Assembly (NCBI GenBank): GCA_016937015.1
Contig: JAFGWT010000062.1
Location: forward strand, 2,609-66,608
Source: Deltaproteobacteria bacterium
Lineage (GTDB): Bacteria > Myxococcota_A > Polyangia > JAAYKL01
DNA length: 64,000 nt
Direction of reading: 5' to 3'
Part shown: one piece after another, positions 33,650-62,427 of the stretch
How positions within the stretch are numbered: position 1 is the first letter of the stretch
Layout: each line of letters begins with the position of its first letter
The notes under the pieces: model-generated
What the model was told of the DNA's origin: nothing
The model's input: the letters and a program-made list of their open reading frames with translations, nothing else
The model's database searches: none
Position numbers and translations under genes: made by a program

Positions 33650-33674
33650 TTTTAGCCTGATTCAGTTTTCCATC

Positions 33675-34136: not shown

Positions 34137-34139
34137 ATT

Positions 34140-34523: not shown

Positions 34524-34539
34524 TTAAAACTCCCCAGTT

Positions 34540-36793: not shown

Positions 36794-36871
36794 GAACTTT
36801 TATTATTTAGTTTTATTATCAGGTGCCGTTTATGTAAAATGCCAGATGTAACATCAAACTGGGGGTATCCA

Positions 36872-37270: not shown

Positions 37271-37312
37271 AAATCACCACTGCATTTATTTTTGAAATAA
37301 TTGCGAATCGCT

Positions 37313-43092: not shown

Positions 43093-43388
43093 CCTGGGGA
43101 TTCCTGCAAGACCGCCGCACGGTTCCATCGTCAATATTCACTGCATTTCGCTGTCAACAAACTGACGTTGAGTCTTAATTATGTCATGATGTCGACGGCG
43201 CAGGATGGCAGGTTAGAACTACCCAGGTTACAGTACACCCGTTTTCATACCCAAATTTTTTTGAGACGAAATCTTTGCGCCCGCTCACTGAATAACCGTA
43301 CAAATGATTTAAACGCAACCAAACAAATCGGTTGAGCGCACAGAGATTCTGATGTCTCGTGCGTTCATTGCAACTGAAGGAGGTCTGT

Positions 43389-46055
43389 ATGCGTACGCTG
43401 TGCGTCTTTTTACTGACTGGGACGTTAATTTATGTAACGGCATGCAAGAGCAACAATTCAAACAACGATACCGACATCTCATCGGATTCCACAAGTGGAA
43501 GTGACTCGGATAGTTCGATTTCGATTGATTCAGATTCATATTCAGATTCAGATTCAGATTACGATTCTCAGGATAGCGGCAGTTCGGATTCGGATACGGT
43601 GCAATCCGATACGGAAATACTCACCGCGGGCGTTGTCGAACTGCTGCCAATCGATGATTTCGATGATGGCACCATTACCAACGCGGTAAACGGCACATGG
43701 GTGGCCTACGATGACAGCAATGAAGGTGGGGACTCACATGTTTGGCCCGTATCGATATTCGATGGTGGTGTTTTCGAACTCAGTTCTCCTGGATTTGGCG
43801 GTACAGGTTACGCGGCGCGAATGACAGGAACCACAGGAGATGTATTTGGATGGGACTACGTGGGGATGTTTACCAGTCTTCATCCTGATGCATTATGTCC
43901 ACTGGCTCACCCATCGGAAATTGATTTGGCTCAGTTTGACGGCATTCAGTTCATGGCCAAAGGCAGTGCTTCGCCGGGACAGCTTGTGGTCAAATTGCCC
44001 CACAAGCTTGATGGCGCCGAAAACAACTGTACCGAAAATCCATATGCGGCCAATTCACTGACCCGGTATGGTGACTACGAAACCGATTTTTACACAAAGC
44101 TCACTGACGAATGGACCCTCATCAGATTGCCATTTTCGAAGTTCAATCAACCATCATGGGCGCCTTCGGTATTTCTGTCAGATGTCCTGACGCACCTAAA
44201 GGAGTTGGGTTGGGAATACGAAGTCCCCAACGGGGAAGTGGATTTGTGGATTGACAATCTGTCCTTTTATAAGGCGGCGCCAGATCCCAGTGATGTCTAT
44301 CCACGATCTGTTCTCGATGACACCCAGCAGATTCCTTTGGCAGCGTTCGCGAATCCGGAAGGCTCAGCAACATCAACTGACACAACTGTATCTGAGCAGG
44401 AATTTTCGGTGGCGAGACGGGTGCAAATCATCAGTGAACCACAGATGCTCTGGGATGTAATGTTGTATGGGCAAAACAGTACGCCAATCAGTCGAGAGGA
44501 CTTACTGTATCTTGAATTCAGTGCACGCTGTATTACCCCGCCGGAAGGTAGCGACACCTGCCACACCACCTTCCTGTTTCAGGAGAACAAAAGTCCCTAT
44601 ACCCATTCTGCGGTGGTTCCGGTTTCGATTGGCAGTGAGTGGCAAAAAGTCACCTGGCCATTTCTATCCAAACAATCGTACGACGTGAATGAAACAGATA
44701 TTGGATTCTTTCTCGGATATACGCCTCAAACCGTTGAATTTGGTGGCATAAAACTCACTAACCTTGGGCACACTGCAAAAATTGACGATTTTCCCAAAAC
44801 GGAGATCACATACGATGGGCGTGCACCGGATGCATCATGGCGGACAGAGGCGATGGCCCGGATTGAACAGATTCGAAAAGGCGATATGGTTATTAGCGTT
44901 AAAGACGCCAACGGTGAACCAGTATCCGGCGCAACGATTGACTTGCGGCAAAGCAGACATCAGTTTGGATTTGGCACTGCCATTAATGCATATGATCTGA
45001 AAAATACCCTCACAGGCGAAAATCTGAACCGATATGAATCCAGTATCTCCGAGCTGTTCAACACTGTGGTGTTGGAAAATGCGCTCAAGTGGCCCCAGAT
45101 TGACGGCACCATGGGAGAGCAAATCGGTATCCCGCTGGCACAGTGGGGGATTGACTGGGCAACACAAAGCAGTTTGTCAGTGCGCGGACACGTACTTGTT
45201 TGGCCTGGATGGTCCAATGTACCGTCCCGGCTAAAAAGGGAGTATGAGAGCCAATTGAACGACAACGGTGAGGAAATTGCGCGGGCGTGGCTGCAGACAG
45301 AAATCGAAACACATATTCGTCAAACAGTTGCGCATTTCAAAGGACAGATGGTGCACTGGGATGTGGTAAATGAACCATTCGACAACCATGACCTGACCGA
45401 TATTGTGGGCATGACCGGCATGTCAAAATGGTTTCAGGCCGCAAGGGAAGCAGACCCGGATGCCAAACTGTTTATCAATGAGTACAGCATTCTGGCGCAA
45501 AAAACCACCAACAGTGCCAGTCGGGAAAATCTGTATCGCACGGTCGCCACTCTAATTGACGACGGCGCACCGCTGGACGGCATCGGGTTTCAGGCCCACT
45601 TCGATGAGGACCTTGCTTCACCCGACAGAATTTACGACATTCTGGATCAGTTTGCGGTATTCAATAAGGAGATATGGATTTCCGAGTTTGATTTTCCCAA
45701 AATCGACCCCGCGCTTGCGGCAGATTATACCAGAGATTTTCTAACTGTTATTTTCAGCCATCCTTCGGTTGAAGGCATGATGATGTGGGGGTTCTGGGAT
45801 GGTAATCACTACGGAAATTCCGCGCCAATATACGACGATCAGTGGAATGAAAAGCCGTCTGGGCAGGTTTACAGGGATTTGGTGTTCAATCAATGGCACA
45901 CCTCAGACACCGGATTAACGACAGCAGAGGGCATGTATACCTCCCGTGCGTTTTTTGGTGACTACGAGATTACAGTAACGATTGGGGAAAGCGCAACGTC
46001 TCGCAACATCAGCTTTGCAAAGGAAAGTGCCGGAACAATCGAAATCACGATTTAA
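43389..46055 (+). CDS. Lipoprotein glycoside hydrolase family 10 (endo-1,4-beta-xylanase-like) with N-terminal Ser/Asp linker and CBM-like domains
   Basis: Lipobox 'YVTAC' and GGAGG RBS. Ser/Asp-rich linker, CBM4_9-like middle region, and GH10 catalytic motifs 'HWDVVNEPF' (acid/base) and 'IWISEFDF' (nucleophile). Confidence 0.8.
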   Translation: MRTLCVFLLTGTLIYVTACKSNNSNNDTDISSDSTSGSDSDSSISIDSDSYSDSDSDYDSQDSGSSDSDTVQSDTEILTAGVVELLPIDDFDDGTITNAVNGTWVAYDDSNEGGDSHVWPVSIFDGGVFELSSPGFGGTGYAARMTGTTGDVFGWDYVGMFTSLHPDALCPLAHPSEIDLAQFDGIQFMAKGSASPGQLVVKLPHKLDGAENNCTENPYAANSLTRYGDYETDFYTKLTDEWTLIRLPFSKFNQPSWAPSVFLSDVLTHLKELGWEYEVPNGEVDLWIDNLSFYKAAPDPSDVYPRSVLDDTQQIPLAAFANPEGSATSTDTTVSEQEFSVARRVQIISEPQMLWDVMLYGQNSTPISREDLLYLEFSARCITPPEGSDTCHTTFLFQENKSPYTHSAVVPVSIGSEWQKVTWPFLSKQSYDVNETDIGFFLGYTPQTVEFGGIKLTNLGHTAKIDDFPKTEITYDGRAPDASWRTEAMARIEQIRKGDMVISVKDANGEPVSGATIDLRQSRHQFGFGTAINAYDLKNTLTGENLNRYESSISELFNTVVLENALKWPQIDGTMGEQIGIPLAQWGIDWATQSSLSVRGHVLVWPGWSNVPSRLKREYESQLNDNGEEIARAWLQTEIETHIRQTVAHFKGQMVHWDVVNEPFDNHDLTDIVGMTGMSKWFQAAREADPDAKLFINEYSILAQKTTNSASRENLYRTVATLIDDGAPLDGIGFQAHFDEDLASPDRIYDILDQFAVFNKEIWISEFDFPKIDPALAADYTRDFLTVIFSHPSVEGMMMWGFWDGNHYGNSAPIYDDQWNEKPSGQVYRDLVFNQWHTSDTGLTTAEGMYTSRAFFGDYEITVTIGESATSRNISFAKESAGTIEITI
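43527..43568 (+). repeat. Imperfect (GATTCA)7 hexanucleotide microsatellite inside the GH10 gene, encoding the (DS)n linker
   Basis: 'gattca gattca tattca gattca gattca gattac gattct', read directly from the sequence. Confidence 0.8.
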
Positions 46056-47606
46056 TCACGTGGCACATGAGCCGGTCGTTCGATTCACCAACTCGAGCAA
46101 TAATCGAATATCCACGTTTTCGCCAACAACTCTCGCCAGGTTGTCATACGCAGCGGTGTGGGTAGCAGAGATGCCGAGCGTATCACCGAGCGTATCAAAT
46201 GAAGTCGAAACGGGTTGAGGCAACGAAAACAGATCAGGACGCACCTTGGCGATATAAGTGTCCAAAAAGATCTGACTGTCAAAAATACCGTGGAGATATG
46301 TTCCAAAGATGTGCCCATTCGCCGATATGACGCCATCGGTCTGGCCAGAATCTTCGAACTGAATGGCGTGATTTACCTCACCGGTTGCAGCCGTTTGTCC
46401 ATGGTGAATTTCATACCCCCAAACCGGCGTCCCGTCTGGCAGCCACGTCCCTTTCTGAAGACGAAGCTGCTTTTCTTCAGCCAGCACGGTCACCACATTC
46501 AACAATCCAAGTCCCGCCACCTCTTTTTCGTGCCCTTCCACGCCGTGCGGATCTTCCACACGATCCCCCAGTATCTGATACCCGCCGCATATTCCGACAA
46601 GATGCCCACCATCCTGGGCGTATGTTTTTATTTTGTCTGACAATCCAACCTGTTTAAGCCACTGTAAATCACCACACACATTTTTGGTGCCAGGCAATAT
46701 GACAACGTCATATTTTGAAAGCGTCTGGTTCCGTCTGACATAGGTAACCCGGATGTCCCTGTGCTTTTCGAGAGGCGCAAAATCAGTGAAATTTGAAATA
46801 TGAGGCAAATGGATCACCGCAATTGACACGACACTCGACTTACCACAGTTGTCCGCTTCGAACGAATCAAGCACGACCGCATCCTCGCTATCCACTCCAA
46901 TATCGTGGATATAAGGAATAATACCAAGCACCGGCAATCCCGTTCGCTGTTCTATAAAGTCAACTCCGTCCCTGAAGAGTGAAGCATCACCTCTGAATCG
47001 ATTGATAATCACCCCAACGACATGTTTTCGTTCCTCAACGGACAACAATTCCAGAGTACCAATGATCTGTGCAAATACACCGCCTCTGTCAATATCCGCA
47101 ACAAGAATTACCCGTGCATTTGCTGCGGTAACCATTGCAAAATTAACAAAATCCCTGGGTTTCAGATTCACTTCAGCGCAGGATCCCGCGCCTTCCATCA
47201 CCACCATCTCATACTTATCCCGAAGGCGTTCCAATGCATCAATCGATATCTGCTTCAAATCCCCCGTGCGCTGGCCGTATGCCACAGCGGAACTTTCGCC
47301 TACCGCTTTCCCCAATACCACCACCTGGGCGCCAACATTGCTGACCGGTTTTAGCAATACCGGATTCATATCCACATGTGGCAGCACCCCGGCCGCCTCA
47401 GCCTGCACGACCTGAGCACGTCCGATTTCACCCCACTCGCCATTATGCCCCTTCACAACATATGAATTATTGGACATATTCTGAGCCTTAAACGGAGCGA
47501 CAGATATACCCATATCTCGAAAAATTCGACAAAGCGCTGTGACGACAACACTTTTACCGACGTCAGACGCCGTGCCGAGTACACTGATGCATGTTGCCTT
47601 TTTCAT
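46056..47606 (-). CDS. cobQ: Cobyric acid synthase
   Basis: 'MKKATCISVLGTASDVGKSVVVTALCRIFRDMGISVAPFKAQNMSNNS' and a C-terminal GATase domain. The start ATG overlaps the cobS stop. Confidence 0.9.
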   Translation of the reverse strand: MKKATCISVLGTASDVGKSVVVTALCRIFRDMGISVAPFKAQNMSNNSYVVKGHNGEWGEIGRAQVVQAEAAGVLPHVDMNPVLLKPVSNVGAQVVVLGKAVGESSAVAYGQRTGDLKQISIDALERLRDKYEMVVMEGAGSCAEVNLKPRDFVNFAMVTAANARVILVADIDRGGVFAQIIGTLELLSVEERKHVVGVIINRFRGDASLFRDGVDFIEQRTGLPVLGIIPYIHDIGVDSEDAVVLDSFEADNCGKSSVVSIAVIHLPHISNFTDFAPLEKHRDIRVTYVRRNQTLSKYDVVILPGTKNVCGDLQWLKQVGLSDKIKTYAQDGGHLVGICGGYQILGDRVEDPHGVEGHEKEVAGLGLLNVVTVLAEEKQLRLQKGTWLPDGTPVWGYEIHHGQTAATGEVNHAIQFEDSGQTDGVISANGHIFGTYLHGIFDSQIFLDTYIAKVRPDLFSLPQPVSTSFDTLGDTLGISATHTAAYDNLARVVGENVDIRLLLELVNRTTGSCAT

Positions 47607-48385
47607 ATTGACCTCAGCCACAAAGCCCAAGGCCAGTGCAGCCATCCGAAATGATGCAGCCAGGCACTGAATAAAAACAGCATCGCCATTTCGACAATCT
47701 CACTCGATGCGCCCAGCAAATCTCCGGTAACGCCACCAAGCTGTCTTTTAAACCACAGGCTCAGATACTTCCCAGTAATAAATGCAACAACAATGGCCGC
47801 CGCACACAGGGGACCGAATCCCGCCACGAAAAACAATGCCGCCAGCCAGGCAATAAGGCGGTGTTTTGATGATGCGTCTGTCACAAATCGCTTTGCAGTG
47901 CCTGAGTCGGCGCGGGCATAGGAGAGCGTGGCCGCCAGGTCAACCTGTACAGTCCGCGATAGTATCATCGCAACAATTATCAGTTGCATTTCGCCCGATT
48001 CCATCAATTTACACAGCAACAGCCATTTCAACATCAATGACCCAATCAATGCAAGCACACCAAACGTTCCAAGACGCGAGTCCTTCAATATTTCCAGCTT
48101 GCGCGCTTTGTCCTTCATACTGAACAATGCGTCCGCCGAGTCCGCCAGACCATCCAGATGAATTGCGCCGGTAAATCCTGTCTGCGCCAGCAACACAACC
48201 ATGGCCGTTAAAAATATCCAATCCGGAAAAATAATGCTGAACAAAAGATACACGCCATACAGCATGGATCCCAGAATTGCGCCCACCAAAGGAAACCAGG
48301 GCATTGCCGTCGCGAGCGAGGGCGCATCTTTCCCAGGTATGCGAAAAACGGTCAGGGTGCGAATGGCGCTGACGATTCCAGACAT
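47603..48385 (-). CDS. cobS: Adenosylcobinamide-GDP ribazoletransferase (cobalamin synthase)
   Basis: Polytopic membrane protein; N-terminus 'RTLTVFRIPGKDAPSLATAMPWFPLVGAILG' is typical of CobS. Confidence 0.9.
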   Translation of the reverse strand: MSGIVSAIRTLTVFRIPGKDAPSLATAMPWFPLVGAILGSMLYGVYLLFSIIFPDWIFLTAMVVLLAQTGFTGAIHLDGLADSADALFSMKDKARKLEILKDSRLGTFGVLALIGSLMLKWLLLCKLMESGEMQLIIVAMILSRTVQVDLAATLSYARADSGTAKRFVTDASSKHRLIAWLAALFFVAGFGPLCAAAIVVAFITGKYLSLWFKRQLGGVTGDLLGASSEIVEMAMLFLFSAWLHHFGWLHWPWALWLRSI

Positions 48386-48388
48386 TTG

Positions 48389-49480
48389 TTACGCTGCACC
48401 TTCATCGACACTGTTCACTTCACCGGAAACACCGGCAGAGCTGAAGGTTGCCATTTCGCGCATCATCTTCACTGCCGCATCAATCAGTGACATTGATAAC
48501 GCGGCGCCGGTGCCTTCTCCCAAGCGAAAACCGAGATCCAGCAGCGGCTTAGCCCCCATCTCTTTGAGAAAAGTCCGATGGCCTCTTTCGGCAGAAAGAT
48601 GACTGAAAAATAAATAGTCCGCAATGCTGGGGCATAGTCTGCAGGCGACCAGTGCGGCAGCAGACGAAATGAATCCATCAATCAGTATGGCGATGCGGTG
48701 GGCTGCAGAACCGAGGATTAGCCCGGCAAGGCCGGCAATTTCCAGACCGCCAACTGTCGAAAGGGTTTTGAGCGGGTCTTCGTCGCCTTTATTTGTCGTC
48801 AGACCATGTCGTTTAACAGCTGCAGCGATGGCAGTGCGCTTTCGCTGAAGTCCTGCATCATCAATACCTGTGCCTCGCCCAATGATGCCATCCAACGCAC
48901 ACGGCAATAAAACATGCATGAGCGCAGCTGAAGCTGTAGTATTGCCAATCCCCATTTCGCCCGTGCCCATCAGCGTGACGCCATCCTGAGCGGCCTCGTC
49001 TGCCAGCTCCACACCCACCTGAAGTGCCGCCAGCATTTCATCAGGGTGCATCGCCGGCCCACTTACCATATTGCCTGTGCCATGTCTGATTTTTCTGTGA
49101 ATCAATCCGCCAATCTCCGAAAGATCTCCATTAACCCCAATATCAACAATCCGCACATCACACCCCACATGGCGGCCAAATACATTTATCGCCGCACCGC
49201 CGTTGACCATGTTGGAAACCATCTGTTTTGTCACTTCACCGGGAAAGGCCGATACGCCCTCCTCGACAACACCGTGGTCCGCGGCAAACGTATACAGTCT
49301 TTTAACGGGCATATCCGGAATAACCTGCTGCCTGATTCGGGCATATCGAAATCCTGCCTCTTCCAGCTGGCCCAGAGACCCCACAGGTTTAGTCAAATCA
49401 TTAATGTGCCTTTTTATGGCATCATCCAACGCCAAAGGGATGGGATGGATTCGGCGAATTGTTGTATCAATCAAAGTCAT
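48389..49480 (-). CDS. cobT: Nicotinate-nucleotide--dimethylbenzimidazole phosphoribosyltransferase
   Basis: CobT-family length and motifs ('GEMGIGNTT', 'GHDVGG'-like region). Lies in the cobU-cobT-cobS order. Confidence 0.9.
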   Translation of the reverse strand: MTLIDTTIRRIHPIPLALDDAIKRHINDLTKPVGSLGQLEEAGFRYARIRQQVIPDMPVKRLYTFAADHGVVEEGVSAFPGEVTKQMVSNMVNGGAAINVFGRHVGCDVRIVDIGVNGDLSEIGGLIHRKIRHGTGNMVSGPAMHPDEMLAALQVGVELADEAAQDGVTLMGTGEMGIGNTTASAALMHVLLPCALDGIIGRGTGIDDAGLQRKRTAIAAAVKRHGLTTNKGDEDPLKTLSTVGGLEIAGLAGLILGSAAHRIAILIDGFISSAAALVACRLCPSIADYLFFSHLSAERGHRTFLKEMGAKPLLDLGFRLGEGTGAALSMSLIDAAVKMMREMATFSSAGVSGEVNSVDEGAA

Positions 49481-49483
49481 TTG

Positions 49484-50026
49484 TTAATCCTTCGTCGTTC
49501 TCTCAACAGGCTTCTTTACCCAAACGGGGCAACCACTTACCATAAATACGACCTCTGTGGCACGAATGGCAACGTCCTGATTTAATCTCCCCGCCACATC
49601 ACGAAACCACCTCCCCATCTCATTTTCAGGAACCAGTCCCATTCCAAGCTCGTTTGAAACCAGCGCCACGTCGCAGGGCGGATGTTCGAGAATTTTCAGA
49701 AGCCGTTGCATCTCACGGTATGGCCATGCACCCTGCCCCAGGTGGTGCATCAGATTGCCCAGCCATACCGTAAGGCAATCAATCAGTACAAAATCCACCT
49801 GACTGTCAGACAGCTCAAGTATTCTGGCAGGGTCCAGCGGCTCCTCCACCGTGGTATACAAATCCCCGCGCTCATGCCGGTGCTTATCAATCCGCAATGC
49901 CATCTCCGCATCGGTGACCTCTGCGGTGGCGAGGAATACGGGGCGACTGTATTCCTGACCGAGCGTCAAACCAAACCGACTCTTCCCGCTTCTTGCCCCG
50001 CCCGTAATCAGAGTGACTTTACCCAT
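49484..50026 (-). CDS. cobU: Bifunctional adenosylcobinamide kinase / adenosylcobinamide-phosphate guanylyltransferase
   Basis: P-loop 'LITGGARSGKSRF'; 180 aa. Confidence 0.9.
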   Translation of the reverse strand: MGKVTLITGGARSGKSRFGLTLGQEYSRPVFLATAEVTDAEMALRIDKHRHERGDLYTTVEEPLDPARILELSDSQVDFVLIDCLTVWLGNLMHHLGQGAWPYREMQRLLKILEHPPCDVALVSNELGMGLVPENEMGRWFRDVAGRLNQDVAIRATEVVFMVSGCPVWVKKPVERTTKD

Positions 50027-50892
50027 TTGGTGAATCCTTTCATGAAGTTCATCGAAGACACAAAATGGTCTGTTCCGAAAACCTCCATGGTCAACACGCG
50101 TTCAATTGTTGAAGCGTTTAAACTGCGCATCAATTTTGTCATTAGCGCTTCTGGCAGGTGAGCAAGGGAACAGTGGTCTGTTCCATTTTCAATACCGTGC
50201 AAATGAATCACCCTTGCCCGCTCCAGGTATCGCGTCAAATACTGTTCGAGGGAGTATCGGTTCAGCAATACATGACCAATATCAAGACAGACAGATACAT
50301 CACATGCGGTTACAACGGGATAAATATCCTCGAACGGGTAGGACAGATTTTCAACGCAAATATCCCGTGCCAATATGCCGCTTTCGGTGAGCACGATGTT
50401 GACAGATTCAATGCATCGCCGTTGCCAGTTCCATATTCCATCTGCAGTATTGCTATCAGCCAGGCGGGGTTGAGGCGGTAAATGCAACACATACGCAAAC
50501 GGATGAAGTGGCTGGGTCAGCGCTATAATGCGCAAACACTGAATCACACTGCGATGTCGCTCGTTGACATCATGAGCCCCCAAATCGATGTCAAGGGGGA
50601 AGTGTATGGTGTACGACAGCGAATGCGCGTCACTCACCTGGCGCATCGTCTCAATGACTGATACATCGGGCAGATTGGAATACTGCTCCGACTCAAACAG
50701 CACCACCTCAACATCGTCAACCAATCCTGCCAATGCGCGAATATTGGGTTCCAAATCCGCGGGAATCACATAGGACGTGGCGCCCAGTCTGAACCGAAAC
50801 GCACCGGCAAGACTAACGACAGACTCCGGCAACTCATTTGAATGCAACTCATTCATCATTGATTTCAGCGTTGATTTCAGCGTTCGAAACAC
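50008..50892 (-). CDS. Xylose-isomerase-like TIM-barrel (AP endonuclease 2 superfamily) protein, possibly a CbiR-like cobamide-remodelling enzyme
   Basis: TIM-barrel sugar-phosphate-isomerase-like pattern of conserved His/Asp/Glu ('VIHLHGIENGTDH'). Embedded between the B12 transporter genes and cobU-cobT-cobS. Confidence 0.5.
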   Translation of the reverse strand: MFRTLKSTLKSMMNELHSNELPESVVSLAGAFRFRLGATSYVIPADLEPNIRALAGLVDDVEVVLFESEQYSNLPDVSVIETMRQVSDAHSLSYTIHFPLDIDLGAHDVNERHRSVIQCLRIIALTQPLHPFAYVLHLPPQPRLADSNTADGIWNWQRRCIESVNIVLTESGILARDICVENLSYPFEDIYPVVTACDVSVCLDIGHVLLNRYSLEQYLTRYLERARVIHLHGIENGTDHCSLAHLPEALMTKLMRSLNASTIERVLTMEVFGTDHFVSSMNFMKGFTKWVKSL

Positions 50893-52019
50893 ACCATAAT
50901 GGGCGGAAGACCAACATCAATAGGCGATGCTGTCAATTCCTGTGCAGTATGTGTATCAAAGATACGGATCCCCGGATTAAAAAAGTTGCGATCGGTCACC
51001 CAGATTTCGGACTCGCCATTAAGTGACATATAGGACAAATCGTAACCAGCTGATGAAATAAGAGTTTCGCCTTTGAATCCAGTCATGGGATTAAACGTGA
51101 CAAGCCGTGTTGCAGCACCTGTGGCTGTCGGCTCGCTGATGATTGCGAATCCCATATCAGGTGCAGTAACAATTGCGTCGATAATATCGCCCCCCAGCGT
51201 CGCTTCAGTGATTATCATCCCGCTCAAAGTGCCATCGAGGGTCATCGTTTCGATGCCACCATCCAGCACACCATAAGATCCTGTTTCGGTTAAAATAAAT
51301 GCGGACAGGGGGGTGTTGTAGCGTAAAATCCCCGTTGGATTTTTACCGTTCAAAATCACTTCCCGCTCGATAGCGTATGTGGCGGGATTGATAATCAATA
51401 GCGCGCTGTAATCTGTTGGCGCCCAGTACATATCAAGTCGCTGGAGTGTCACATAAACTTTGCCGTCCCTGAAAATGGCCTGCGACGCCTCAGGATTTCC
51501 ATCCGAATCCGCATATGCCGACAAATCCACGCGCGCAATTTCTGTACCCAACGTGGGATGAACGACAAGGAGTTCAGGGGAACCAATTCTGGGAACCACT
51601 GCTCTGCCTGGTCCAATAACGGCGATATCCTGGGCATTGGTGCCTGCTTCAACGGAATATTGCGCCATCGGTTTATAACCGGCATCTTCATTCAGTACGG
51701 TTATGGCATCTGAACCAAACCTGGAAATCACAAAAATGTGACCGGTTACTTCATCGTATCGGCAAATTGAGTCGGAATGAATAACCTGCGTGTTACGTTG
51801 AACAACGCGGGTCTCGGCAGTGACAACTGACACCGCGCCAGTGCTGTAATCAGTGGTCACAACAATCCCTGTGTCGCCCACGGTATTGACTTCAATGTCA
51901 TCGACATCGCCCGAGTCACATCCAGCCAGAATAAAAACTGACAACAGCAATGACAGCACAGTCACCGAGCAGTTCAATTTCAAATTAGATTTCATTTTCA
52001 TCTCAATACTTCCTTTCAA
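50877..52019 (-). CDS. Surface/periplasmic beta-propeller lipoprotein (YncE-like), candidate cobamide-binding accessory protein of the B12 uptake locus
   Basis: Lipobox 'VFILAGCDSG', repeated beta-rich blades, sited directly downstream of the riboswitch-controlled TonB-dependent receptor. The start may be the Met at ~52001. Confidence 0.6.
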   Translation of the reverse strand: MKGSIEMKMKSNLKLNCSVTVLSLLLSVFILAGCDSGDVDDIEVNTVGDTGIVVTTDYSTGAVSVVTAETRVVQRNTQVIHSDSICRYDEVTGHIFVISRFGSDAITVLNEDAGYKPMAQYSVEAGTNAQDIAVIGPGRAVVPRIGSPELLVVHPTLGTEIARVDLSAYADSDGNPEASQAIFRDGKVYVTLQRLDMYWAPTDYSALLIINPATYAIEREVILNGKNPTGILRYNTPLSAFILTETGSYGVLDGGIETMTLDGTLSGMIITEATLGGDIIDAIVTAPDMGFAIISEPTATGAATRLVTFNPMTGFKGETLISSAGYDLSYMSLNGESEIWVTDRNFFNPGIRIFDTHTAQELTASPIDVGLPPIMVCFER

Positions 52020-52032
52020 ATATAACGAAATT

Positions 52033-54216
52033 TCAAACCTTAAAACGCAGTGTCACAAATACACTTCGGCCAGGCAGCGGAAATGCCAGGTAATCCCGAA
52101 GAGGTCGTTGTCTTCCTGTGCTGTCTTTCAGCAATATGCTATTGAGCAAATTCTTTATTTCCAGCGTTACGGTCAGTTTAGCAGGTATGATTTCCAGCTG
52201 CCAACCTGCGCCGAGCAGTGCACGCCCCAGTACGTCCTGTGTAAAATTGGCCTGGTCCAGAAAATTATTGCCGGCATAATCCACATCGAGCCAAAGCTCG
52301 TTCCTGACTGAACCGATGGTGCCTTTCAATGTAGACTTAAGATATGCTTCGTGGATAGGGCGACCAGGTAGTCTATTCCCCGCGTAGAATCCAATTTCGG
52401 AGCGATTAACCGTTTGCATGTACGTGTAATTTCCCGACAAAGATAAATGGGACCACAACGTGGCCTCCGCCGATATCTCCAGACCAAGTATCCGCGCTGC
52501 ATGCACATTTTCGGCACGAATGGTATTTTGCGAATTCTGAACAAACGCAATCAACTGCTCGCTCCATGTGCCAAATGTCCCTGCATATATCTGGGCGGTA
52601 TTCACTGCTGTATCTGTGTTTGCTTCGAAAGTGTATTTAATGCCCGCATCGGCATTCAGGCCTTCTTCGGCCTTCAGTTCGGGATTGCCCACAACGGTGC
52701 CGCGATCACCAAACAATTCAAACAGGTCCGGAGTTCGAAGATACTTTCCAACATTTGACAAAAAGCGGTGCCGCCTGGTCAGCTGCCAACTGATACCCAA
52801 AGACGGCATAATGTGTTGGTCTGAGAGCTCAATCGTACGAACCTTTTGTTCCCCCATCGCGGGTGGCAGCTCAGCTGTATACCGATCGGCCTGGGATCGC
52901 AGCGACGGCACAATCTTCAAGCCGTTTTGGGGAATCCAGCTAAAATCAATTCCACCTCCCAACCGCTGACGGTATCCCGGTTTCAGAGGCAACAAATCCT
53001 GTGCATCCACGAAATCAAATGTATCAAGGCTGCCTTCCACCCGGGTGGCGAACTGATATTTCCGTGTGCCAAAATGCCAGATGCTGTGGCCTAAAACCGT
53101 ATGCGCAATGGCATGGGAGTGCTGGTGCCCAACGCCAATTTCATCTAAAGGATCTTCGAACCGGTTCTGCTGTTGTATGTAGCCGAGCGACCACATCAAA
53201 GACTGTTGTTTATTCCATTCGCGTTCTCCCTGAACTGCTGCAAGCTCACGCAGACAGAACAAAGATGCTTTTTCGACGGGCACACTGTCAATTCCGGCAA
53301 CACCTTGATTTTTCATGTGCAGGCTGTTTAAAAAGGTTAGCCGCATTTTTCCCACGTATGTTGAAAGTTTCAGCAATGTGGACACAGACTGCTGTTCATT
53401 GTTTTTTCGACGAACGATCTCATCATCCGTCGTGTTCAACTCGGTGCCATTTCGGTTGAGATATTTAAAATCGCCCCTTGATCCCATTACGGAAACCAAC
53501 GCAAAAACGTCCACCCGTCCCGTGGTTGAACGATGAAGTGCGGTTGCCTTGCCCGAATGCCAGGACCCGTACCCTGCACTGTATTCTGTTGTCTCATTAC
53601 TCCCATTCCCTGTATTCAACGAAATCGCCCCACCAATGCTGCCCAGACCAAGTGAGACGGGAGTGGTCCCCCTATACACATCCACTCTGTCAAACATTTC
53701 CAGAGTTAAATCGCTGAGGTTCACAGTGGAAAAACCACCTGAGTTCAGCAAAATGCCGTCAATGAAAATAAGCACCTGCGCAGCGTCTGACCCGCGAATA
53801 TGGGCCGTCGTGTAGGATCCAGGGCCTCCGGCGGATCGAACCTGTATACCAACTCCCGGACCAAGTACTTCACTGACAGTAGTGTTTCGGCTGTTCAGTT
53901 CCGAGACATCAATGGATTCTCCCGCAGCGGTACCGTCATCCACTGGCGACAGGGGCAAGCCGTGAATGTTCGTTTCGTAAGTGTCCAGAGTTGTGTCATC
54001 ATCCAAATCCGGCGACACCATGGACGCATCGGCAAACGCACTCCAGTCGATGTCACTTTGAGCCAGGGAATCATCTGTTATATTATTCGAAGACGAGGCA
54101 ACGACATCAGACGCCGAGGCGCCCGTGCAAAAAAACAGGATGATTGTTAAACGCCCGAAAAACAGGAGGAAACGGGTTCCCCAACTGCGTGACGGTGCGG
54201 GGAAATGACAGATCAT
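52033..54216 (-). CDS. btuB: TonB-dependent outer-membrane receptor, BtuB-like (cobalamin)
   Basis: Signal peptide from the internal Met ('MICHFPAPSRSWGTRFLLFFG...ASA'), plug and 22-strand barrel features, C-terminal 'VTLRFKV'. Preceded by a cobalamin riboswitch; the ORF-track N-terminal extension to 54363 runs into the riboswitch and is rejected. Confidence 0.85.
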   Translation of the reverse strand: MICHFPAPSRSWGTRFLLFFGRLTIILFFCTGASASDVVASSSNNITDDSLAQSDIDWSAFADASMVSPDLDDDTTLDTYETNIHGLPLSPVDDGTAAGESIDVSELNSRNTTVSEVLGPGVGIQVRSAGGPGSYTTAHIRGSDAAQVLIFIDGILLNSGGFSTVNLSDLTLEMFDRVDVYRGTTPVSLGLGSIGGAISLNTGNGSNETTEYSAGYGSWHSGKATALHRSTTGRVDVFALVSVMGSRGDFKYLNRNGTELNTTDDEIVRRKNNEQQSVSTLLKLSTYVGKMRLTFLNSLHMKNQGVAGIDSVPVEKASLFCLRELAAVQGEREWNKQQSLMWSLGYIQQQNRFEDPLDEIGVGHQHSHAIAHTVLGHSIWHFGTRKYQFATRVEGSLDTFDFVDAQDLLPLKPGYRQRLGGGIDFSWIPQNGLKIVPSLRSQADRYTAELPPAMGEQKVRTIELSDQHIMPSLGISWQLTRRHRFLSNVGKYLRTPDLFELFGDRGTVVGNPELKAEEGLNADAGIKYTFEANTDTAVNTAQIYAGTFGTWSEQLIAFVQNSQNTIRAENVHAARILGLEISAEATLWSHLSLSGNYTYMQTVNRSEIGFYAGNRLPGRPIHEAYLKSTLKGTIGSVRNELWLDVDYAGNNFLDQANFTQDVLGRALLGAGWQLEIIPAKLTVTLEIKNLLNSILLKDSTGRQRPLRDYLAFPLPGRSVFVTLRFKV

Positions 54217-54314
54217 TACAACCCAACCCTTGTACGCGAAGAGCAGTGTTATACATTGTTGCCGATAACTTCGATAACAATGCGTTGAAATCCCGTCTGG
54301 ATATCCTGGCTTCC

Positions 54315-54475
54315 GGGTTCGATATTTTATCGTGTCGCATTCCGCCTTCCCAATTGCATGCAATCAGTGGCCTATGGAATGAACCCCGGTTCACAGTGGC
54401 GCGACCGCGCCGGATTCTCACCGGCTTCCCCAACCGAAATTTCATAATTGGATTTTCAATCACAGCAACCAGCTG
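54315..54475 (-). promoter_or_regulatory. Cobalamin (AdoCbl) riboswitch in the 5' leader of btuB
   Basis: Minus-strand sequence 'GGGGAAGCCGGTGAGAATCCGGCGCGGTCGCGCCACTGTGAACCGGGG ... GCCACTGATTGCATGCAATTGGGAAGGCGG' matches the conserved cobalamin-riboswitch core, including the B12 box GCCACTG. Confidence 0.85.
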
Positions 54476-54518
54476 CGAGGCATCATGTCGCGCATCCTGA
54501 ATGCAAAGTCAAGCGTAT

Positions 54519-56288
54519 TCAACCGTTCTGGTTTTGCAATCGGGTTTGGGCAGGCAGTTCGATAGTAAAAGTAACCCCTTCCCCAGGCCGTGATTGCACA
54601 TCCAGAGTGCCTTTGTGAGAGTCAGTGATGATAAAATACGATACCGACAATCCCAGACCAGTCCCTATTCCTGGCGCCTTGGTCGTGAAAAAAGGTTCAA
54701 AAATTCTGTTCTGAACCACCATGTCCATTTCGGGACCGTTATTGGCAATGGATATTATCGCTGTTCCAATGGATGAAGAAATCGAAATCTCAAAACGCGG
54801 GTCATCAATTGCGGCGTCGTTCATTGCTTCTGCGCCGTTTCGCAAAATATTCAGCAGAACCTGCTGAATCATACTGACATGACAGCGTATCTCCACATCC
54901 GTGCCGTCGGAATGCATCAGAATCTGAATTTTGCGAAAATCGTATTTTTTCTTTAAGTCATACTCATTGCGAGCCAGTTCAAGTGCTTCGTTAATCAAAT
55001 TTTCAACCCGAACCACTTGCATTTCACCACTTTCTTTTCGGGCGAACGACAACATGTTGTCAACGATGCGCGCCGCGCGCTTGCCACTTTTCGAAATGGC
55101 GTCCAGCAGTTGAAAAATGCTTTTTTTCTCCATATATCGATAAAGCGCGTTCAAATCCAGACCACACGCTTTCGCATCGTTTCTGTTTTTGTCCGTCTGA
55201 TGAACCAGTCGGCTTTCAAGCACCTGTGAACTCTGGAGAATCCCCGCCAAAGGATTGTTTATCTCGTGGGCCATTCCAGCAGCCAGTCCACCCACTGATA
55301 TCATCTTCTCGGTATGCACCATCAACGCTTCAAACCGTGCCTGTTCAGTCACATCGTCCATTCGAATAACAGCCCCAACGGCCTGCCCAGGAATCAGTGG
55401 GTACACCACCAGATTATACTGTCGTTCCGGCCTGTCATTTAGCAGGGTAATCTTCTTTTGAATGACGGCATCGCCGCCGGATGCGACCTGCGCCAGGGTG
55501 GTATACAGGGATGGAAGCAGTGTGAAAACCTTTCGAAAAGGGCAATTCATCGCATCTGCTGACGCCACGCCCGTAAGCGCTTCCGCTTCAAGATTCCATC
55601 CGGTGACTCGCATTGCCTCATCCACACTCATGAGCACCGATGGCATACTGTTAACTGTTCGGTTCAACAGCAGCCGGGTCGCGTTGACTTCCTTCATATC
55701 TGCCTTGATTCTTTCAAGCGCCCGTTGATTGGCAGTGTAAATGGCATTGCTTATCACAGCCAGAAAAAGCAGCGCGACGCCTGTATCGGTGGCATAGTCA
55801 CGCAAGCCCAGCGCTGTCATCGTTCCCTGACGATACTCGTTGTAGCAAAATGCGACAAAGAAAATAAAGTTGACAGCGTGAAACAGCCACAGCTGAAGGC
55901 GATGAGAAAGAGTGAGAAGCGGAATGGTGGAGAGAATTGCAAATCCAATCGCAATTGTGTCCACCCGCGCAACAGGATCTTCGGATTGGTCAATAAACAT
56001 CACCGCCCACATGCCGGCAAGAAATGCCCAAATCATCAATTGACCGGCGGCGGCAAGGCGCTTTTTCCAAAGCAGCCACAAATCAAACACACTGATCCCC
56101 CAAAGAGCAACGATAATGAATCGAATGGAATCAAATGGACTTTGCAGCAAAAAGATATTGAACGCGAGCAACACGGGCAATGCAATGAGCAACAGAATAT
56201 TGACAATCTGCAGATATTTTGCCTGCAACTGCATCGCATAATCGTCATTGCTGTATCGCGTCAGTATACTCGGAAATCCCATAAACAT
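54519..56288 (-). CDS. Sensor histidine kinase with multi-pass membrane N-terminal domain and PAS domain
   Basis: ~6 hydrophobic segments, a PAS-like region, HisKA 'LAAGMAHEINNPLAGIL', and an HATPase_c with 'GTGLGLSVSYFI'. Confidence 0.85.
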   Translation of the reverse strand: MFMGFPSILTRYSNDDYAMQLQAKYLQIVNILLLIALPVLLAFNIFLLQSPFDSIRFIIVALWGISVFDLWLLWKKRLAAAGQLMIWAFLAGMWAVMFIDQSEDPVARVDTIAIGFAILSTIPLLTLSHRLQLWLFHAVNFIFFVAFCYNEYRQGTMTALGLRDYATDTGVALLFLAVISNAIYTANQRALERIKADMKEVNATRLLLNRTVNSMPSVLMSVDEAMRVTGWNLEAEALTGVASADAMNCPFRKVFTLLPSLYTTLAQVASGGDAVIQKKITLLNDRPERQYNLVVYPLIPGQAVGAVIRMDDVTEQARFEALMVHTEKMISVGGLAAGMAHEINNPLAGILQSSQVLESRLVHQTDKNRNDAKACGLDLNALYRYMEKKSIFQLLDAISKSGKRAARIVDNMLSFARKESGEMQVVRVENLINEALELARNEYDLKKKYDFRKIQILMHSDGTDVEIRCHVSMIQQVLLNILRNGAEAMNDAAIDDPRFEISISSSIGTAIISIANNGPEMDMVVQNRIFEPFFTTKAPGIGTGLGLSVSYFIITDSHKGTLDVQSRPGEGVTFTIELPAQTRLQNQNG

Positions 56289-56366: not shown

Positions 56367-56840
56367 CTATTTTGTTGCTGTTTCAGAAGCGGGTGTTTCC
56401 GCCTTGTCGCTGCTGTCATCTTCCTGGACGATAATATGACGAGTCGTGTAATCCGTGCCGTTAAGAATAATCTGCTGGCCAGTACGCAATTCCGGGTCAA
56501 GGGCCAGCGGTGCAAGCAGATTTACAGTAATGGGGTGTGGCGCCGGTGGAACAACAGCAATTACCGCCGCTCCGATGTCCTTTGGCGTTCGCTTATTTGT
56601 GGATAACGCCTCCCGCAGCTTATCCATTGGGTAGTCCGGATCCAGTAACAGCGGATCCACCACCACAAACGCCATTTCGGGTTCAATCGTGGACTGAATC
56701 CACTTGAATGGGGAGCCGGGATTGTGTTCCAGCACCACAAAATGAGTAAAATCCGGAAAGCCGATGATCCCATCAGAAAAGTGAAATACATCCGCTTCAT
56801 TCAACTCTAATTCACCAAATCGGGTCGTTGAAACTTTCAC
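56367..56840 (-). CDS. fliW: Flagellar assembly factor FliW
   Basis: 'FGELELNEADVFHFSDGIIGFPDFTHFVVLEH' is typical of FliW. Adjacent to csrA. Confidence 0.85.
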   Translation of the reverse strand: MKVSTTRFGELELNEADVFHFSDGIIGFPDFTHFVVLEHNPGSPFKWIQSTIEPEMAFVVVDPLLLDPDYPMDKLREALSTNKRTPKDIGAAVIAVVPPAPHPITVNLLAPLALDPELRTGQQIILNGTDYTTRHIIVQEDDSSDKAETPASETATK

Positions 56841-57103
56841 TTTTTCTCTCCATCAGATGCGGGATTCTTCTGAATCGACAATTTACCAATCGACAGTCTG
56901 CCGTCAAGTTGCTCCATGGCGGCTGCCGCAGCGCGTTTATTTTCTTCCATAATCTCCATGTGTATTTCCATCCGGTTCACCGGAATATTTCGCGGTGTAT
57001 CGATGGCCAGTCTTACGTTTCTCCCTCGAATTTCCTTCACTGTCACAACAATGTCATTACCAATAACGATACTTTCGCCCTTTTTTCTGCTTAAAACTAA
57101 CAT
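56837..57103 (-). CDS. csrA: Carbon storage regulator CsrA
   Basis: 'MLVLSRKKGESIVIGNDIVVTVKEIRGRNVRLAIDTPRNIPVNR' is the near-canonical CsrA fold sequence. Confidence 0.9.
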   Translation of the reverse strand: MLVLSRKKGESIVIGNDIVVTVKEIRGRNVRLAIDTPRNIPVNRMEIHMEIMEENKRAAAAAMEQLDGRLSIGKLSIQKNPASDGEKK

Positions 57104-57135
57104 ACGCCTTATGCCTTCCTGGCTTTGCGCAGCGG

Positions 57136-58014
57136 CTACAGGTGGGTAAGCAATGTGTTGTCCGTCACCTTTCTGGCAACACTCATTGCTTCCTGCAACG
57201 CGCTGGCGGTTTCGTTCAATCTCATGAATGTATCTACCGGGTCAATATCGATCACAGAAGATTCCTCTTTCGTCAAGCTATCTTCCAAAGTCTGACGCAC
57301 ATTTTCCGAAACGTCCAGGCGATTTAATTTCAATCCCACATCAGTTCGCACATTGGTGACCTGAGCAATGCAGGTATCCAGCGTTCCGATGGCCGTTTGG
57401 ATGCCCACATCGTCATCAGCCAGAAGCGCTGTCCGAAGCGCCTCCAGTTCCGCAAAAACGTCGATGCCGCCAACCAAAGTGAATGCGTTTTCTCCTGAAA
57501 CACCCACCTCCGCGCGGCTGGATGGCCCTACATCGACTTCCTTTATATTGCTGTCACCAACATAGGTGCCATCGGGCAAAAACGGCCGGGTATCGGTCAT
57601 AAAACCGGCAAAAATAAATTCCCCTGCGGCCTCAGTGTTCGCCACGGTCAGCATCGATTCATACAGACTCTCCACTTCCTGCGCACTGATTGTCCGCTCC
57701 GGCGGCGCTGTCAGTTCATTTCCCATGGCCAATGCGATTTCCTTGGCGCGTATCAGCAGATTGGTGGCTTCTTCCAGCGCGGTATCCGCTGTATCAAGCT
57801 GTGTTTTTGAACGGGTGATATTTGTCTCATAATGAAGCGTCGCCTGTTTGGCCTCTCTAAGCATTCGCACTCGCTCTGCGCTGACCGGGTCTGTATCAAT
57901 GCCCTGAAATTTCTTTCCGGTCGCTGACTGCTCCTGAAGTTCAAACAGATTGCTGCGCTGCCCCGCCACGTCCCGTGTTCCCCGTCTGTAAATCATCTGG
58001 TCAGTGATTCTCAT
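57136..58014 (-). CDS. flgL: Flagellar hook-associated protein 3 FlgL
   Basis: 'MRITDQMIYRRGTRDVAGQRSNLFELQEQSATGKKF' N-terminus and flagellin-like N/C helices. The ORF-track start at 58035 would overlap flgK. Confidence 0.85.
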   Translation of the reverse strand: MRITDQMIYRRGTRDVAGQRSNLFELQEQSATGKKFQGIDTDPVSAERVRMLREAKQATLHYETNITRSKTQLDTADTALEEATNLLIRAKEIALAMGNELTAPPERTISAQEVESLYESMLTVANTEAAGEFIFAGFMTDTRPFLPDGTYVGDSNIKEVDVGPSSRAEVGVSGENAFTLVGGIDVFAELEALRTALLADDDVGIQTAIGTLDTCIAQVTNVRTDVGLKLNRLDVSENVRQTLEDSLTKEESSVIDIDPVDTFMRLNETASALQEAMSVARKVTDNTLLTHL

Positions 58015-58027
58015 CGCACATCTCCCG

Positions 58028-59428: not shown

Positions 59429-59437
59429 TGCAGCCTC

Positions 59438-59857
59438 TTACGCTATAATCTCCCGACGGGTAACAGGAGAGCGCATTTTTGCCGGTCGGTTCATGTATCC
59501 ATGCTGACCGTATGTTTGCGTTTGCCCGTTCATTTTAATCATCAGTGATAAAATGCCGGTGTAATACTGATGCATATGTTCAATCAGCAGATGATTTGAA
59601 TTTGCCAGGTCACGTACCTGCCGGCCAAGCCTGCGAATTTCCATCGCCAGATCGGTTTTTGGCGTTTTCAAACCCTCAAGCATGGTTGAAATTCGAAGTT
59701 TTTCCTCGGCCAGTTCTCCAACCAGTCTGGCGTCCCCTTTAAGAAGTGCGGTATTTTCCTTTTCCAGCACTGCCCGCATCTCCTGCAGCACCTGAATCAT
59801 AAGGCGCTCCTCAGTTTCAGCGCCGACGTTATTGGTGGTCGAAATACTTTCCATCAT
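59438..59857 (-). CDS. flgN: FlgN-like flagellar export chaperone
   Basis: 139-aa helical protein between flgM and flgK, the usual FlgN position. Weak sequence signature only. Confidence 0.5.
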   Translation of the reverse strand: MMESISTTNNVGAETEERLMIQVLQEMRAVLEKENTALLKGDARLVGELAEEKLRISTMLEGLKTPKTDLAMEIRRLGRQVRDLANSNHLLIEHMHQYYTGILSLMIKMNGQTQTYGQHGYMNRPAKMRSPVTRREIIA

Positions 59858-60155
59858 TTGCTCCGTCTGTCAGATAGGTGGCTTTAAATACGCGCTTCAA
59901 TTCCTTTTCGAGCATCTTTTTACTCGTTTCATACGGATCGGGCATGGGGCCATCGGCAGTTGTCTGAACCTGTTCCACAGCTTCAACCTGTTCCGTATGG
60001 GCTGCTGCCTGCGCGGCATCACTGAGTTCGACGGAATCAACATAGTCCACACTCTCCACTTTCCGTGTATTGGAAGACTGTGTCGAACCGTATTTTTTTT
60101 GGGCGCCACCGGTCTTGGATACTGATGAGCCACTTCCTGTTTTTGATACCTTCAC
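59829..60155 (-). CDS. flgM: Anti-sigma-28 factor FlgM
   Basis: ~100-aa disordered Ser/Thr/Gln-rich protein with a C-terminal 'VDSVELSDAAQAA' helix typical of FlgM. GGAGG RBS before a GTG start. Confidence 0.65.
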   Translation of the reverse strand: MKVSKTGSGSSVSKTGGAQKKYGSTQSSNTRKVESVDYVDSVELSDAAQAAAHTEQVEAVEQVQTTADGPMPDPYETSKKMLEKELKRVFKATYLTDGANDGKYFDHQ

Positions 60156-60193
60156 CTTGCACCTCCAGAGGTCTGCAAAAGGGTCTATCGTCT

Positions 60194-62421: not shown

Positions 62422-62427
62422 TCCTTT

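Follow-up and report, generated by a model that had tools for sequence, protein, structure and literature searches.

Introduction

Competition for B12-type cofactors shapes microbial communities, and the best-understood device for their high-affinity capture is the protein BtuG on its receptor BtuB. BtuG caps BtuB and hands over B12 to it (PMC10404256), and it has been stated to be exclusive to Bacteroidetes (Wexler et al. 2018, PMC6143338; bioRxiv 10.1101/2024.02.16.580637). A September 2026 review places homologs of BtuH and BtuJ beyond Bacteroidota, with BtuG not among them, and in open-access papers and bioRxiv we found only Bacteroides literature and no description of a BtuG-like partner outside this phylum. 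Here we analyze a stretch of 64,000 nucleotides (nt), referred to below as the window, from a Deltaproteobacteria bacterium (GenBank assembly GCA_016937015.1, contig JAFGWT010000062.1, positions 2,609 to 66,608 of the forward strand). It contains a cobalamin riboswitch followed by genes for a TonB-dependent receptor, a BtuG-like beta-propeller lipoprotein, the cobamide-remodeling phosphodiesterase CbiR, and CobU, CobT, CobS, and CobQ.

CbiR was described in Akkermansia muciniphila, where it hydrolyzes adenosylcobalamin (AdoCbl) and other cobamides to adenosylcobinamide phosphate (AdoCbi-P) and alpha-ribazole (Mok et al. 2020, PMC7733943). The enzyme is oxygen-sensitive in vitro, and its homologs are found in 22 phyla, with 80% of their genes adjoining cobamide synthesis genes and 25% adjoining transporter genes (PMC7733943). 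A riboswitch before a B12 receptor gene, the cobUTS salvage genes, remodeling by CbiR, and the linkage of cbiR to transporter genes are already known. What is new in this locus, we infer, is the BtuG-like component, which would carry an already described mechanism into further phyla, with its binding pocket rebuilt and an alternative mode of anchoring.

The interpretation we favor, with a probability of roughly 70%, is that a single riboswitch-controlled unit couples the capture of corrinoids to their rebuilding. It is directly supported by the riboswitch, by the gene families with their order and spacing, by the predicted fold of the lipoprotein and its remote homology to BtuG, and by the linkage of the lipoprotein family to receptors and riboswitches.

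The riboswitch, the receptor, and the order of the genes

A scan of the whole window with Rfam models returned one match above threshold, the cobalamin riboswitch RF00174, at 54278-54453 on the minus strand (cmscan; 73.4 bits against a gathering score of 31.5 bits, E 3.3e-16, model positions 1-189 of 189). A preliminary description of this DNA had placed a cobalamin riboswitch immediately 5' of a TonB-dependent receptor gene, at 54315-54475 on the minus strand, and had asked for an RF00174 search. The significant minus-strand match identifies the same element in the same setting, while the coordinates given for it were shifted by about 20-40 nt.

The aptamer lies on the strand of the receptor gene, in its 5' leader, and ends 61 nt before the ATG at 54216. 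The mechanically called open reading frame (ORF) of the receptor, 52033-54363, extends into the aptamer; the plausible start codon is the ATG at 54216, which has AAGGG upstream at a spacing of 10 nt, so that the gene occupies 52033-54216 (minus strand). The sequence between the aptamer and this start codon (54217-54277, 61 nt, minus strand), read as a putative expression platform, contains a hairpin directly 3' of the closing helix P1 of the aptamer, lacking a U-tract, as well as the Shine-Dalgarno-like AAGGG at 54231-54227. In the minimum-energy fold of the leader AAGGG is paired with CUCUU, a possible hairpin sequestering the ribosome-binding site.

Read from the ATG at 54216, the receptor begins with a signal peptide ending in GASA and contains the Pfam domains Plug (PF07715, 51.7 bits) and TonB_dep_Rec_b-barrel (PF00593, 95.2 bits), which together give the architecture of plug plus 22-strand barrel that defines an outer-membrane TonB-dependent receptor. 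Among solved sequences it comes nearest to 9gbc_A, to the E. coli BtuB plug domain (E ~1e-13), and, weakly, to Bacteroides BtuB3. We call it a putative corrinoid transporter, BtuB-like by context, because of the riboswitch and the genes around it.

The receptor gene is the first of seven co-directional, tightly packed minus-strand ORFs 3' of the riboswitch. After a gap of 31 nt comes the gene for the lipoprotein (50877-52001), whose ATG at 52001 is preceded by the ribosome-binding site AAAGGAAG. The cbiR gene (50008-50859) follows after 17 nt if read from its ATG at 50859, or overlaps the lipoprotein gene by 16 nt if read from an alternative GTG start at 50892. It overlaps cobU (49484-50026) on the same strand by 19 nt, and gaps of only 3 nt separate cobU from cobT (48389-49480) and cobT from cobS (47603-48385). 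The last gene, cobQ, likely starts at Met14 (46056-47606), where its start codon and the stop codon of cobS form an ATGA overlap; the ORF extends to 47645, its first ATG would give a 43-nt overlap, and the match of the NCBIfam model NF001989 to CobQ begins at residue 19. These gaps and overlaps accord with the seven co-directional genes of the preliminary description, five of them with overlapping or near-overlapping junctions.

Across 45800-54700, promoter-like sites (11, against 10.4 in shuffled sequence) and terminator-like sites (11, against 9.5) are found at chance level. Given this and the spacing of the genes, the seven would be co-transcribed, presumably as one transcription unit. Their order is kept in two relatives, L001 and L008, with protein identities of 42-67%. 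In L001, the closest relative, the seven genes likewise stand behind a riboswitch and are followed by cobD, cbiB, two copies of btuF, btuD, and btuC.

The junction of the lipoprotein gene and cbiR contains a perfect tandem duplication of 12 nt (CGCTGAAATCAA twice; 50859-50882, minus strand). The repeat includes the TGA stop codon of the lipoprotein gene (50879-50877) and reaches as far as the likely start codon of cbiR, the ATG at 50859. Because of this duplication, CbiR read from the upstream GTG shows a repeated TLKS TLKS.

The lipoprotein is a remote relative of BtuG

The lipoprotein comprises 374 residues and carries the lipobox LAGC, with a lipid-modified cysteine, Cys28, that is kept in close relatives. 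It has no match in Pfam or NCBIfam, and a phmmer search against the sequences of the PDB found nothing; a profile of its homologs was needed to reach BtuG. An AlphaFold2 model based on an alignment of 54 homologs (predicted local distance difference test score, pLDDT, 91.9; predicted template modeling score, pTM, 0.86) is composed of 27 strands in seven blades, with closure by the C-terminal strand. The lipobox and this predicted fold uphold the earlier suggestion of a beta-propeller lipoprotein. Close relatives all share two further cysteines, Cys80 and Cys371; a disulfide between them is probable and would fit a location outside the cytoplasm.

Bacteroides BtuG corresponds to the Pfam family DUF5074 and is represented by the PDB entries 3DSM, 8BMX, 8OKV, and 8P97. 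When the model was compared with the PDB by Foldseek, the top 12 fold matches were all Bacteroides BtuG2 or BtuG3, including 3DSM, with target-normalized template modeling (TM) scores of 0.70-0.77 and identities of 11-13%. They are followed by an archaeal surface-layer YVTN domain, cd1 nitrite reductase, BtuK1, XusB, and YncE. A profile of the family searched against the PDB (hmmsearch) finds BtuG chains at E values from 8e-11 to 6.5e-8, well ahead of YncE, which at 1.6e-3 is the family ranked next. Moreover, hhalign aligns the family with a BtuG3-type alignment at 97.1% probability (E 6.9e-11); the 308 aligned columns extend from the lipobox cysteine to a C-terminal cysteine common to both families. 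Judged by these profile comparisons, the lipoprotein family is a remote but real relative of BtuG, a sister family and not a member of DUF5074.

The BtuG3-type alignment was seeded with a full-length BtuG3-like sequence rebuilt from a gut-metagenome locus (L031) by reading stop codon 151 of its gene as Gln. The profile is shallow because the listed matches of the full-length BtuG3 search are all at least 76% identical. The BtuG3-like gene itself (4001-5068, plus strand) has the in-frame stop at codon 151, where the PDB chain has Gln, and it is called as two genes with products of 150 and 195 amino acids, the former of which is recorded on 18 contigs.

Some relatives of the lipoprotein carry other names. 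"LIC_13355 lipoprotein", found on P0017, was rejected as the identity of the family, since that name stems from an extra C-terminal domain. Annotations as YncE, streptogramin lyase, or BamB were taken as generic propeller labels.

The propeller family is linked to receptors and riboswitches

A word-index search found 170 homologs of the lipoprotein, one of them identical (locus tag JXX14_02960). Among 1.84 billion cluster representatives, the profile of 54 homologs matches 4,254 at E<=1e-3, 2,939 at 1e-10, and 1,492 at 1e-30, and by these matches the family is large; it is unnamed. According to record titles, its hosts are Myxococcota, Polyangia, "Myxococcales", "Deltaproteobacteria", Candidatus Eisenbacteria, and Latescibacterota, the genomes having been assembled from metagenomes.

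We compared the surroundings of the propeller gene at 29 independent loci, of which one is that of the window, five were reached via homologs, and 23 come from a genome scan in which one genome per species was searched with 14 of the closer family sequences. In every locus with upstream DNA (28/28), the gene immediately before that of the propeller encodes a receptor homolog. RF00174 is found upstream on the same strand in 23 of the 29, or in 23 of the 25 with enough upstream DNA, because four of the six loci without a riboswitch end at contig edges (L023, L025, L028, and L029). Linkage to cbiR, in contrast, is seen in only five of the 29, and many loci consist of the receptor-propeller pair alone. 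As far as these loci show, the pair is the conserved core and the remodeling genes are an add-on in this lineage.

Other loci place different genes around the pair. One encodes, in order, btuF, btuC, btuD, the receptor, the propeller, and tonB (L005). Another (L006, 9297-15943, plus strand) has a riboswitch, the receptor, and the propeller, behind which a CobN-like chelatase and two Mg-chelatase/AAA subunits are encoded, an arrangement that we take to resemble heme or metalloporphyrin uptake loci.

Two loci contain additional elements. In L003, a 355-residue protein without a Pfam match is encoded at 6739-7806 (plus strand), between the cobalamin riboswitch and the receptor, and is a candidate for a further corrinoid-handling protein. 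In L022, where no riboswitch was detectable for the receptor-propeller pair, four Acido-Lenti-1 RNA motifs (RF01687, 43-51 bits) flank the pair at 1207-1361, 3676-3720, and 8814-8858 on the minus strand.

Two predicted modes of anchoring within the family

Not all family members are lipoproteins. The five examined from Eisenbacteria and Latescibacterota (L004, L026, L027, L029, and L030) have an ordinary signal peptide and no lipobox cysteine. Four of these, L004, L027, L029, and L030, end in a stretch of about 80 residues with an NPFNP motif, while the C-terminus of L026 is divergent. The type IX secretion type A sorting domain TIGR04183 was found in all four sequences scanned (P0069, which is the protein of L004, P0075, L027, and L030), with scores of 35.7-43.2 bits against a cut-off of 23. 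The propeller genes of L004, L026, L027, and L030 still stand behind a receptor gene and a cobalamin riboswitch; L029 has the receptor, and its upstream DNA is too short for the riboswitch search.

Proteins secreted by the type IX system end up on the cell surface or are released from the cell. Because two anchoring routes thus serve the same propeller beside the same receptor neighbor, the family would act at the outward side of the outer membrane, like BtuG, and the lipoprotein of the window may be exposed on the surface. Behind Cys28 this lipoprotein continues with the acidic sequence DSGDVDD, which is not the MKWD-type signal of BtuG2 (PMC6143338).

A candidate corrinoid-binding site

The contacts of BtuG2 with B12 are E55, G56, F58, Q93, N107, S131, R135, W149, W194, S195, Q219, W272, Y316, and Y335 (bioRxiv 10.1101/2024.02.16.580637; PMC10404256). 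Thirteen of them map onto the rebuilt BtuG3 at an offset of -11, and R135 fits only as R133. At five of the corresponding positions the window lipoprotein has a conservative replacement: F58 by Y52, S131 by N122, R133 by Q124, Q219 by N221, and Y335 by F340. Several of the positions aligned with BtuG contacts coincide with or adjoin residues that are among the most conserved of the family: D51, D77, R94, N122, R188, and P222.

About 22 of 30 near-invariant family residues lie in loops of one face of the propeller and two on the opposite face, the faces being assigned from the predicted strand order and canonical propeller topology and not from coordinates. This distribution suggests a conserved functional site on the same face as the BtuG pocket, built from different residues. 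Because of the riboswitch linkage, a corrinoid is its most likely ligand.

The strongest signature of the family, YADxDGxPE, occupies residues 163-171 in the loop entering blade 4 and aligns with DMTMETGSTE of BtuG3. This loop could bind a metal or contact the receptor.

CbiR and the enzymes of nucleotide loop assembly

The identity of the enzymes was decided by the curated equivalog cut-offs of NCBIfam, with Pfam families as a second line. CbiR scores 265.8 bits with the equivalog NF041277, which is 2.5 times its cut-off (105); the match covers all but one of the 249 positions of the model (248). It also matches Pfam AP_endonuc_2 (PF01261; 40.8 bits against 31.1), which places it in the AP endonuclease 2/xylose isomerase-like TIM-barrel superfamily. 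CobU, the adenosylcobinamide kinase/AdoCbi-P guanylyltransferase, reaches 170.3 bits with NF004469 (cut-off 161) and 176.7 bits with Pfam CobU. For CobT, the nicotinate-nucleotide:base phosphoribosyltransferase that activates the lower ligand, the scores are 429.3 bits with TIGR03160 (cut-off 319.3) and 440.2 bits with Pfam DBI_PRT, and for CobS, the adenosylcobinamide-GDP ribazoletransferase (cobamide synthase), 152.6 bits with TIGR00317 (cut-off 110) and 171.5 bits with Pfam CobS. CobQ, cobyric acid synthase, scores 598.5 bits with NF001989 (cut-off 273). By analogy with these families, the operon would provide the corresponding activities.

The preliminary description had recognized a CbiR-like TIM barrel along with cobU, cobT, cobS, and cobQ; all pass the NCBIfam cut-offs, and the first can be called CbiR outright. 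It had also read the genes as a module for salvage and lower-ligand remodeling lacking the early corrin ring genes. For the locus, the set of CbiR, CobU, CobT, and CobS supports this, and Pfam scans confirm the absence of the ring genes within the 64-kb window only. Salvage and remodeling is the natural reading of the locus because CbiR followed by CobU, CobT, and CobS makes up the remodeling route of Akkermansia muciniphila (PMC7733943).

Neighboring genes

Outside the operon, 40 further ORFs in the window with a length of 150 residues or more were scanned with Pfam, which found no other genes of cobamide synthesis or transport. The sole other B12-related gene found encodes a radical SAM protein with a B12-binding domain at 25570-26865 (minus strand), likely a cobamide-dependent enzyme.

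Upstream of the riboswitch lie a gene for a PAS histidine kinase (54519-56288, minus strand) and then flagellar genes, FliW, a flagellin-like gene, FlgK, FlgI, FlgH, and FlgA, at 56367-63974 (minus strand). A chemotaxis cluster with CheA, CheR, CheD, CheB, and CheX occupies 32603-40081 (minus strand). These flagellar and chemotaxis genes share a genome with a locus whose nearest relatives are labeled Myxococcota or Polyangia.

Downstream, the operon meets a convergent gene for a glycoside hydrolase of family 10 (GH10) at 43359-46055 (plus strand). Its stop codon TAA (46053-46055) directly abuts that of cobQ (46056-46058, minus strand), with zero intergenic bases, so that there is no room for terminators between the two genes; it is at this point that the operon of L001 runs on into cobD, cbiB, and the btu genes. 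The GH10 protein comprises 898 residues, with a candidate lipobox VTAC, a low-complexity stretch rich in Ser and Asp, about 450 residues without a Pfam match, and a C-terminal GH10 domain of the xylanase type.

Proposed function and alternative explanations

We propose the following model, in which the enzyme chemistry is borrowed from work on Akkermansia and Salmonella. At low AdoCbl the aptamer would be empty and the operon expressed, and at high AdoCbl the switch would shut. The receptor and the BtuG-like propeller, presumably tethered by its lipid anchor to the outward side of the outer membrane, would capture environmental cobamides or cobinamide; TonB would drive import through the receptor, and an ATP-binding cassette (ABC) transporter encoded outside the window would carry the corrinoid across the inner membrane. 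If the cobamide has an unsuitable lower ligand, CbiR would cut its phosphoribosyl bond to yield AdoCbi-P, which CobU would convert to AdoCbi-GDP, also phosphorylating free cobinamide. CobT would activate the preferred base, CobS would join it to AdoCbi-GDP, and a phosphatase encoded elsewhere would finish the cofactor. CobQ may complete the amidation of incompletely amidated corrinoids.

A broader proposal builds on this model: that the unnamed propeller family, with at least 1,500 clusters, does the job of BtuG in Myxococcota-type bacteria, Eisenbacteria, and Latescibacterota, using a rebuilt pocket and, interchangeably, a lipid anchor or a type IX sorting domain to reach the cell surface, and that in the window this lid is co-transcribed with CbiR, making capture and remodeling one regulated unit. 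We would give this proposal even odds.

Several results weigh against our interpretation. The receptor falls far below the cut-offs of the BtuB equivalogs (85.9 against 599.7 bits for TIGR01779, and 67.6 against 836 for NF007926), so that of the "btuB" in the preliminary description the TonB-dependent receptor stands, by its Pfam domains, and the label BtuB is one of context. The Pfam model of BtuG, DUF5074 (PF16819), does not match the lipoprotein even at E<=10, as opposed to 72.5 bits for the BtuG3-like control, and matches three of 54 family members, weakly. By the hhalign mapping, which is uncertain at this distance, none of the 14 residues of BtuG2 that contact B12 is identical in the window lipoprotein, and the three tryptophans lining the BtuG2 pocket are replaced. 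Because these contacts are not conserved, we only infer that the propeller binds a corrinoid. Its lipid-modified cysteine is directly followed by Asp, which in E. coli causes retention in the inner membrane, an E. coli rule that may not be that of this lineage. In the leader of the receptor gene, the fold is no better than those of shuffled sequences (z = -0.86), and neither the promoter and terminator scan nor the leader sequence reveals a clear terminator in the expression platform. Finally, no btuFCD, cbiB, cobD, cobC, or adenosyltransferase genes were found in the window. The pathway thus needs genes from elsewhere in the genome, namely btuFCD, cobC, and an adenosyltransferase gene, to which cbiB and cobD must be added if cobyric acid is salvaged.

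Some of these results bear on what the propeller does. It could be an obligate partner of the receptor that binds no corrinoid, serving as a passive lid or as a factor in assembly or stability, or binding another ligand, for example some other metallated tetrapyrrole. The loss of the tryptophan cage and of every identical BtuG contact fits this explanation, as do the CobN- and Mg-chelatase-like genes behind the propeller in L006, with their presumed likeness to heme or metalloporphyrin uptake loci, and other seven- or eight-bladed propellers that partner receptors bind other ligands, for example XusB, present in the list of fold matches, which binds ferrichrome. However, the riboswitch upstream of 23 of the 25 loci with enough DNA, L006 included, is a cobalamin riboswitch; near-invariant polar residues gather on one face, several of them at or near positions aligned with BtuG contacts (N122, R188, N221/P222, D51, D77, and R94); and BtuG chains are the best matches of the propeller in both sequence and fold. 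We therefore regard a partner without corrinoid binding as rather unlikely. A propeller that processes corrinoids as a hydrolase or lyase, before or after import, is much less probable still. A few family members show weak Pfam similarity to glutamine cyclotransferase and NHL-type propellers, relatives are annotated as streptogramin lyase in some sources, and the acidic motif YADxDGxPE at residues 163-171 could bind a metal, but the enzyme-type matches are weak (best E 2.3e-4, in four of 54 members) and of the kind that propellers commonly show to one another, the nearest relatives with solved structures bind ligands without being enzymes, and the invariable pairing with a receptor fits a role in transport.

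Two further alternatives concern the locus as a whole. CobQ acts on cobyrinic acid a,c-diamide, an intermediate of de novo synthesis, and the cluster might be the late part of a full de novo cobamide pathway with the ring genes elsewhere, in which case salvage alone would be an artifact of viewing 64 kb. In keeping with this idea, the window covers only a portion of a metagenome-assembled genome, and cobD and cbiB are present in addition in the relative L001. CbiR and an outer-membrane importer, on the other hand, have no role in de novo synthesis. We consider a full pathway possible, though on the improbable side, and since it concerns the capability of the genome it is compatible with the locus working as proposed. 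That the riboswitch controls the receptor gene only, with or without the propeller gene, and that the enzyme genes have a promoter of their own, seems improbable. Most loci have the receptor-propeller pair without cob genes, and because cbiR is linked in so few of them the receptor-propeller and remodeling modules are separable in evolution; the 12-nt tandem duplication at the junction of the propeller gene and cbiR also speaks for such a division. Against it, the junctions overlap or span 3-31 nt, the predicted promoters and terminators do not exceed chance, and the order of the seven genes is conserved in L001 and L008.

Should the propeller family do the job of BtuG, corrinoid capture assisted by lipid-anchored or secreted propellers would be widespread in lineages of sediment and soil, the propeller family would merit a model and name of its own, and its differing pocket would be a natural experiment in how propellers recognize corrinoids. 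A single riboswitch stands before the genes of the receptor, the propeller, and CbiR, which supports the suggestion of Mok et al. that remodeling is coupled to uptake. The remainder of the locus is textbook material, of value mainly for annotation.

Comparison with known systems

The locus shares with E. coli and Salmonella a cobalamin riboswitch before the gene for an outer-membrane B12 receptor, and the use of CobU, CobT, and CobS to build the nucleotide loop from salvaged cobinamide. In E. coli, btuB is monocistronic, its product is not known to have a surface partner, and the cob genes are grouped in an operon of their own. Unlike the window locus, E. coli also lacks CbiR, and the receptor of the window resembles E. 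coli BtuB in the plug domain only (E 1e-13).

Remodeling by CbiZ, as in Rhodobacter and Dehalococcoides, follows the same logic, in that an unsuitable lower ligand is removed and the cofactor is rebuilt, and CbiZ genes, too, often adjoin those of transporters (PMC7733943). The chemistry differs, CbiZ being an amidohydrolase that yields cobyric acid and CbiR a phosphodiesterase that yields AdoCbi-P. Because its product is cobyric acid, the CbiZ route needs CbiB and CobD, both of which CbiR bypasses. No CbiZ was found in the window.

Closer is the cbiR locus of Akkermansia muciniphila (PMC7733943), where CbiR is likewise encoded with cobU, cobT, cobS, and cobQ in the same orientation, and where the predicted route likewise leads from a cobamide through AdoCbi-P and AdoCbi-GDP to a new cobamide. 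In the window, however, cbiR belongs to a riboswitch-led string of genes that includes the receptor and its BtuG-like partner, neither cobD nor cbiB is part of the locus, the host is another organism in another habitat, and the activity of CbiR is a predicted one.

The capture part of the locus compares best with the BtuB-BtuG pair of Bacteroides. In both, a riboswitch leads to the gene of a TonB-dependent receptor with the gene of a seven-bladed propeller lipoprotein adjacent to it, and the lipoprotein combines an N-terminal lipobox with a conserved C-terminal cysteine. The differences are substantial: identity between the window lipoprotein and Bacteroides BtuG is only about 12-16%, and the receptor gene precedes the propeller gene here, whereas the propeller gene comes first in the BtuG3-like locus L031. 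Moreover, the window lipoprotein lacks a lipoprotein export signal of the Bacteroidota type, and some members of its family have a type IX sorting domain in place of the lipid anchor. The hosts differ as well, the family being one of Myxococcota-type bacteria, Eisenbacteria, and Latescibacterota.

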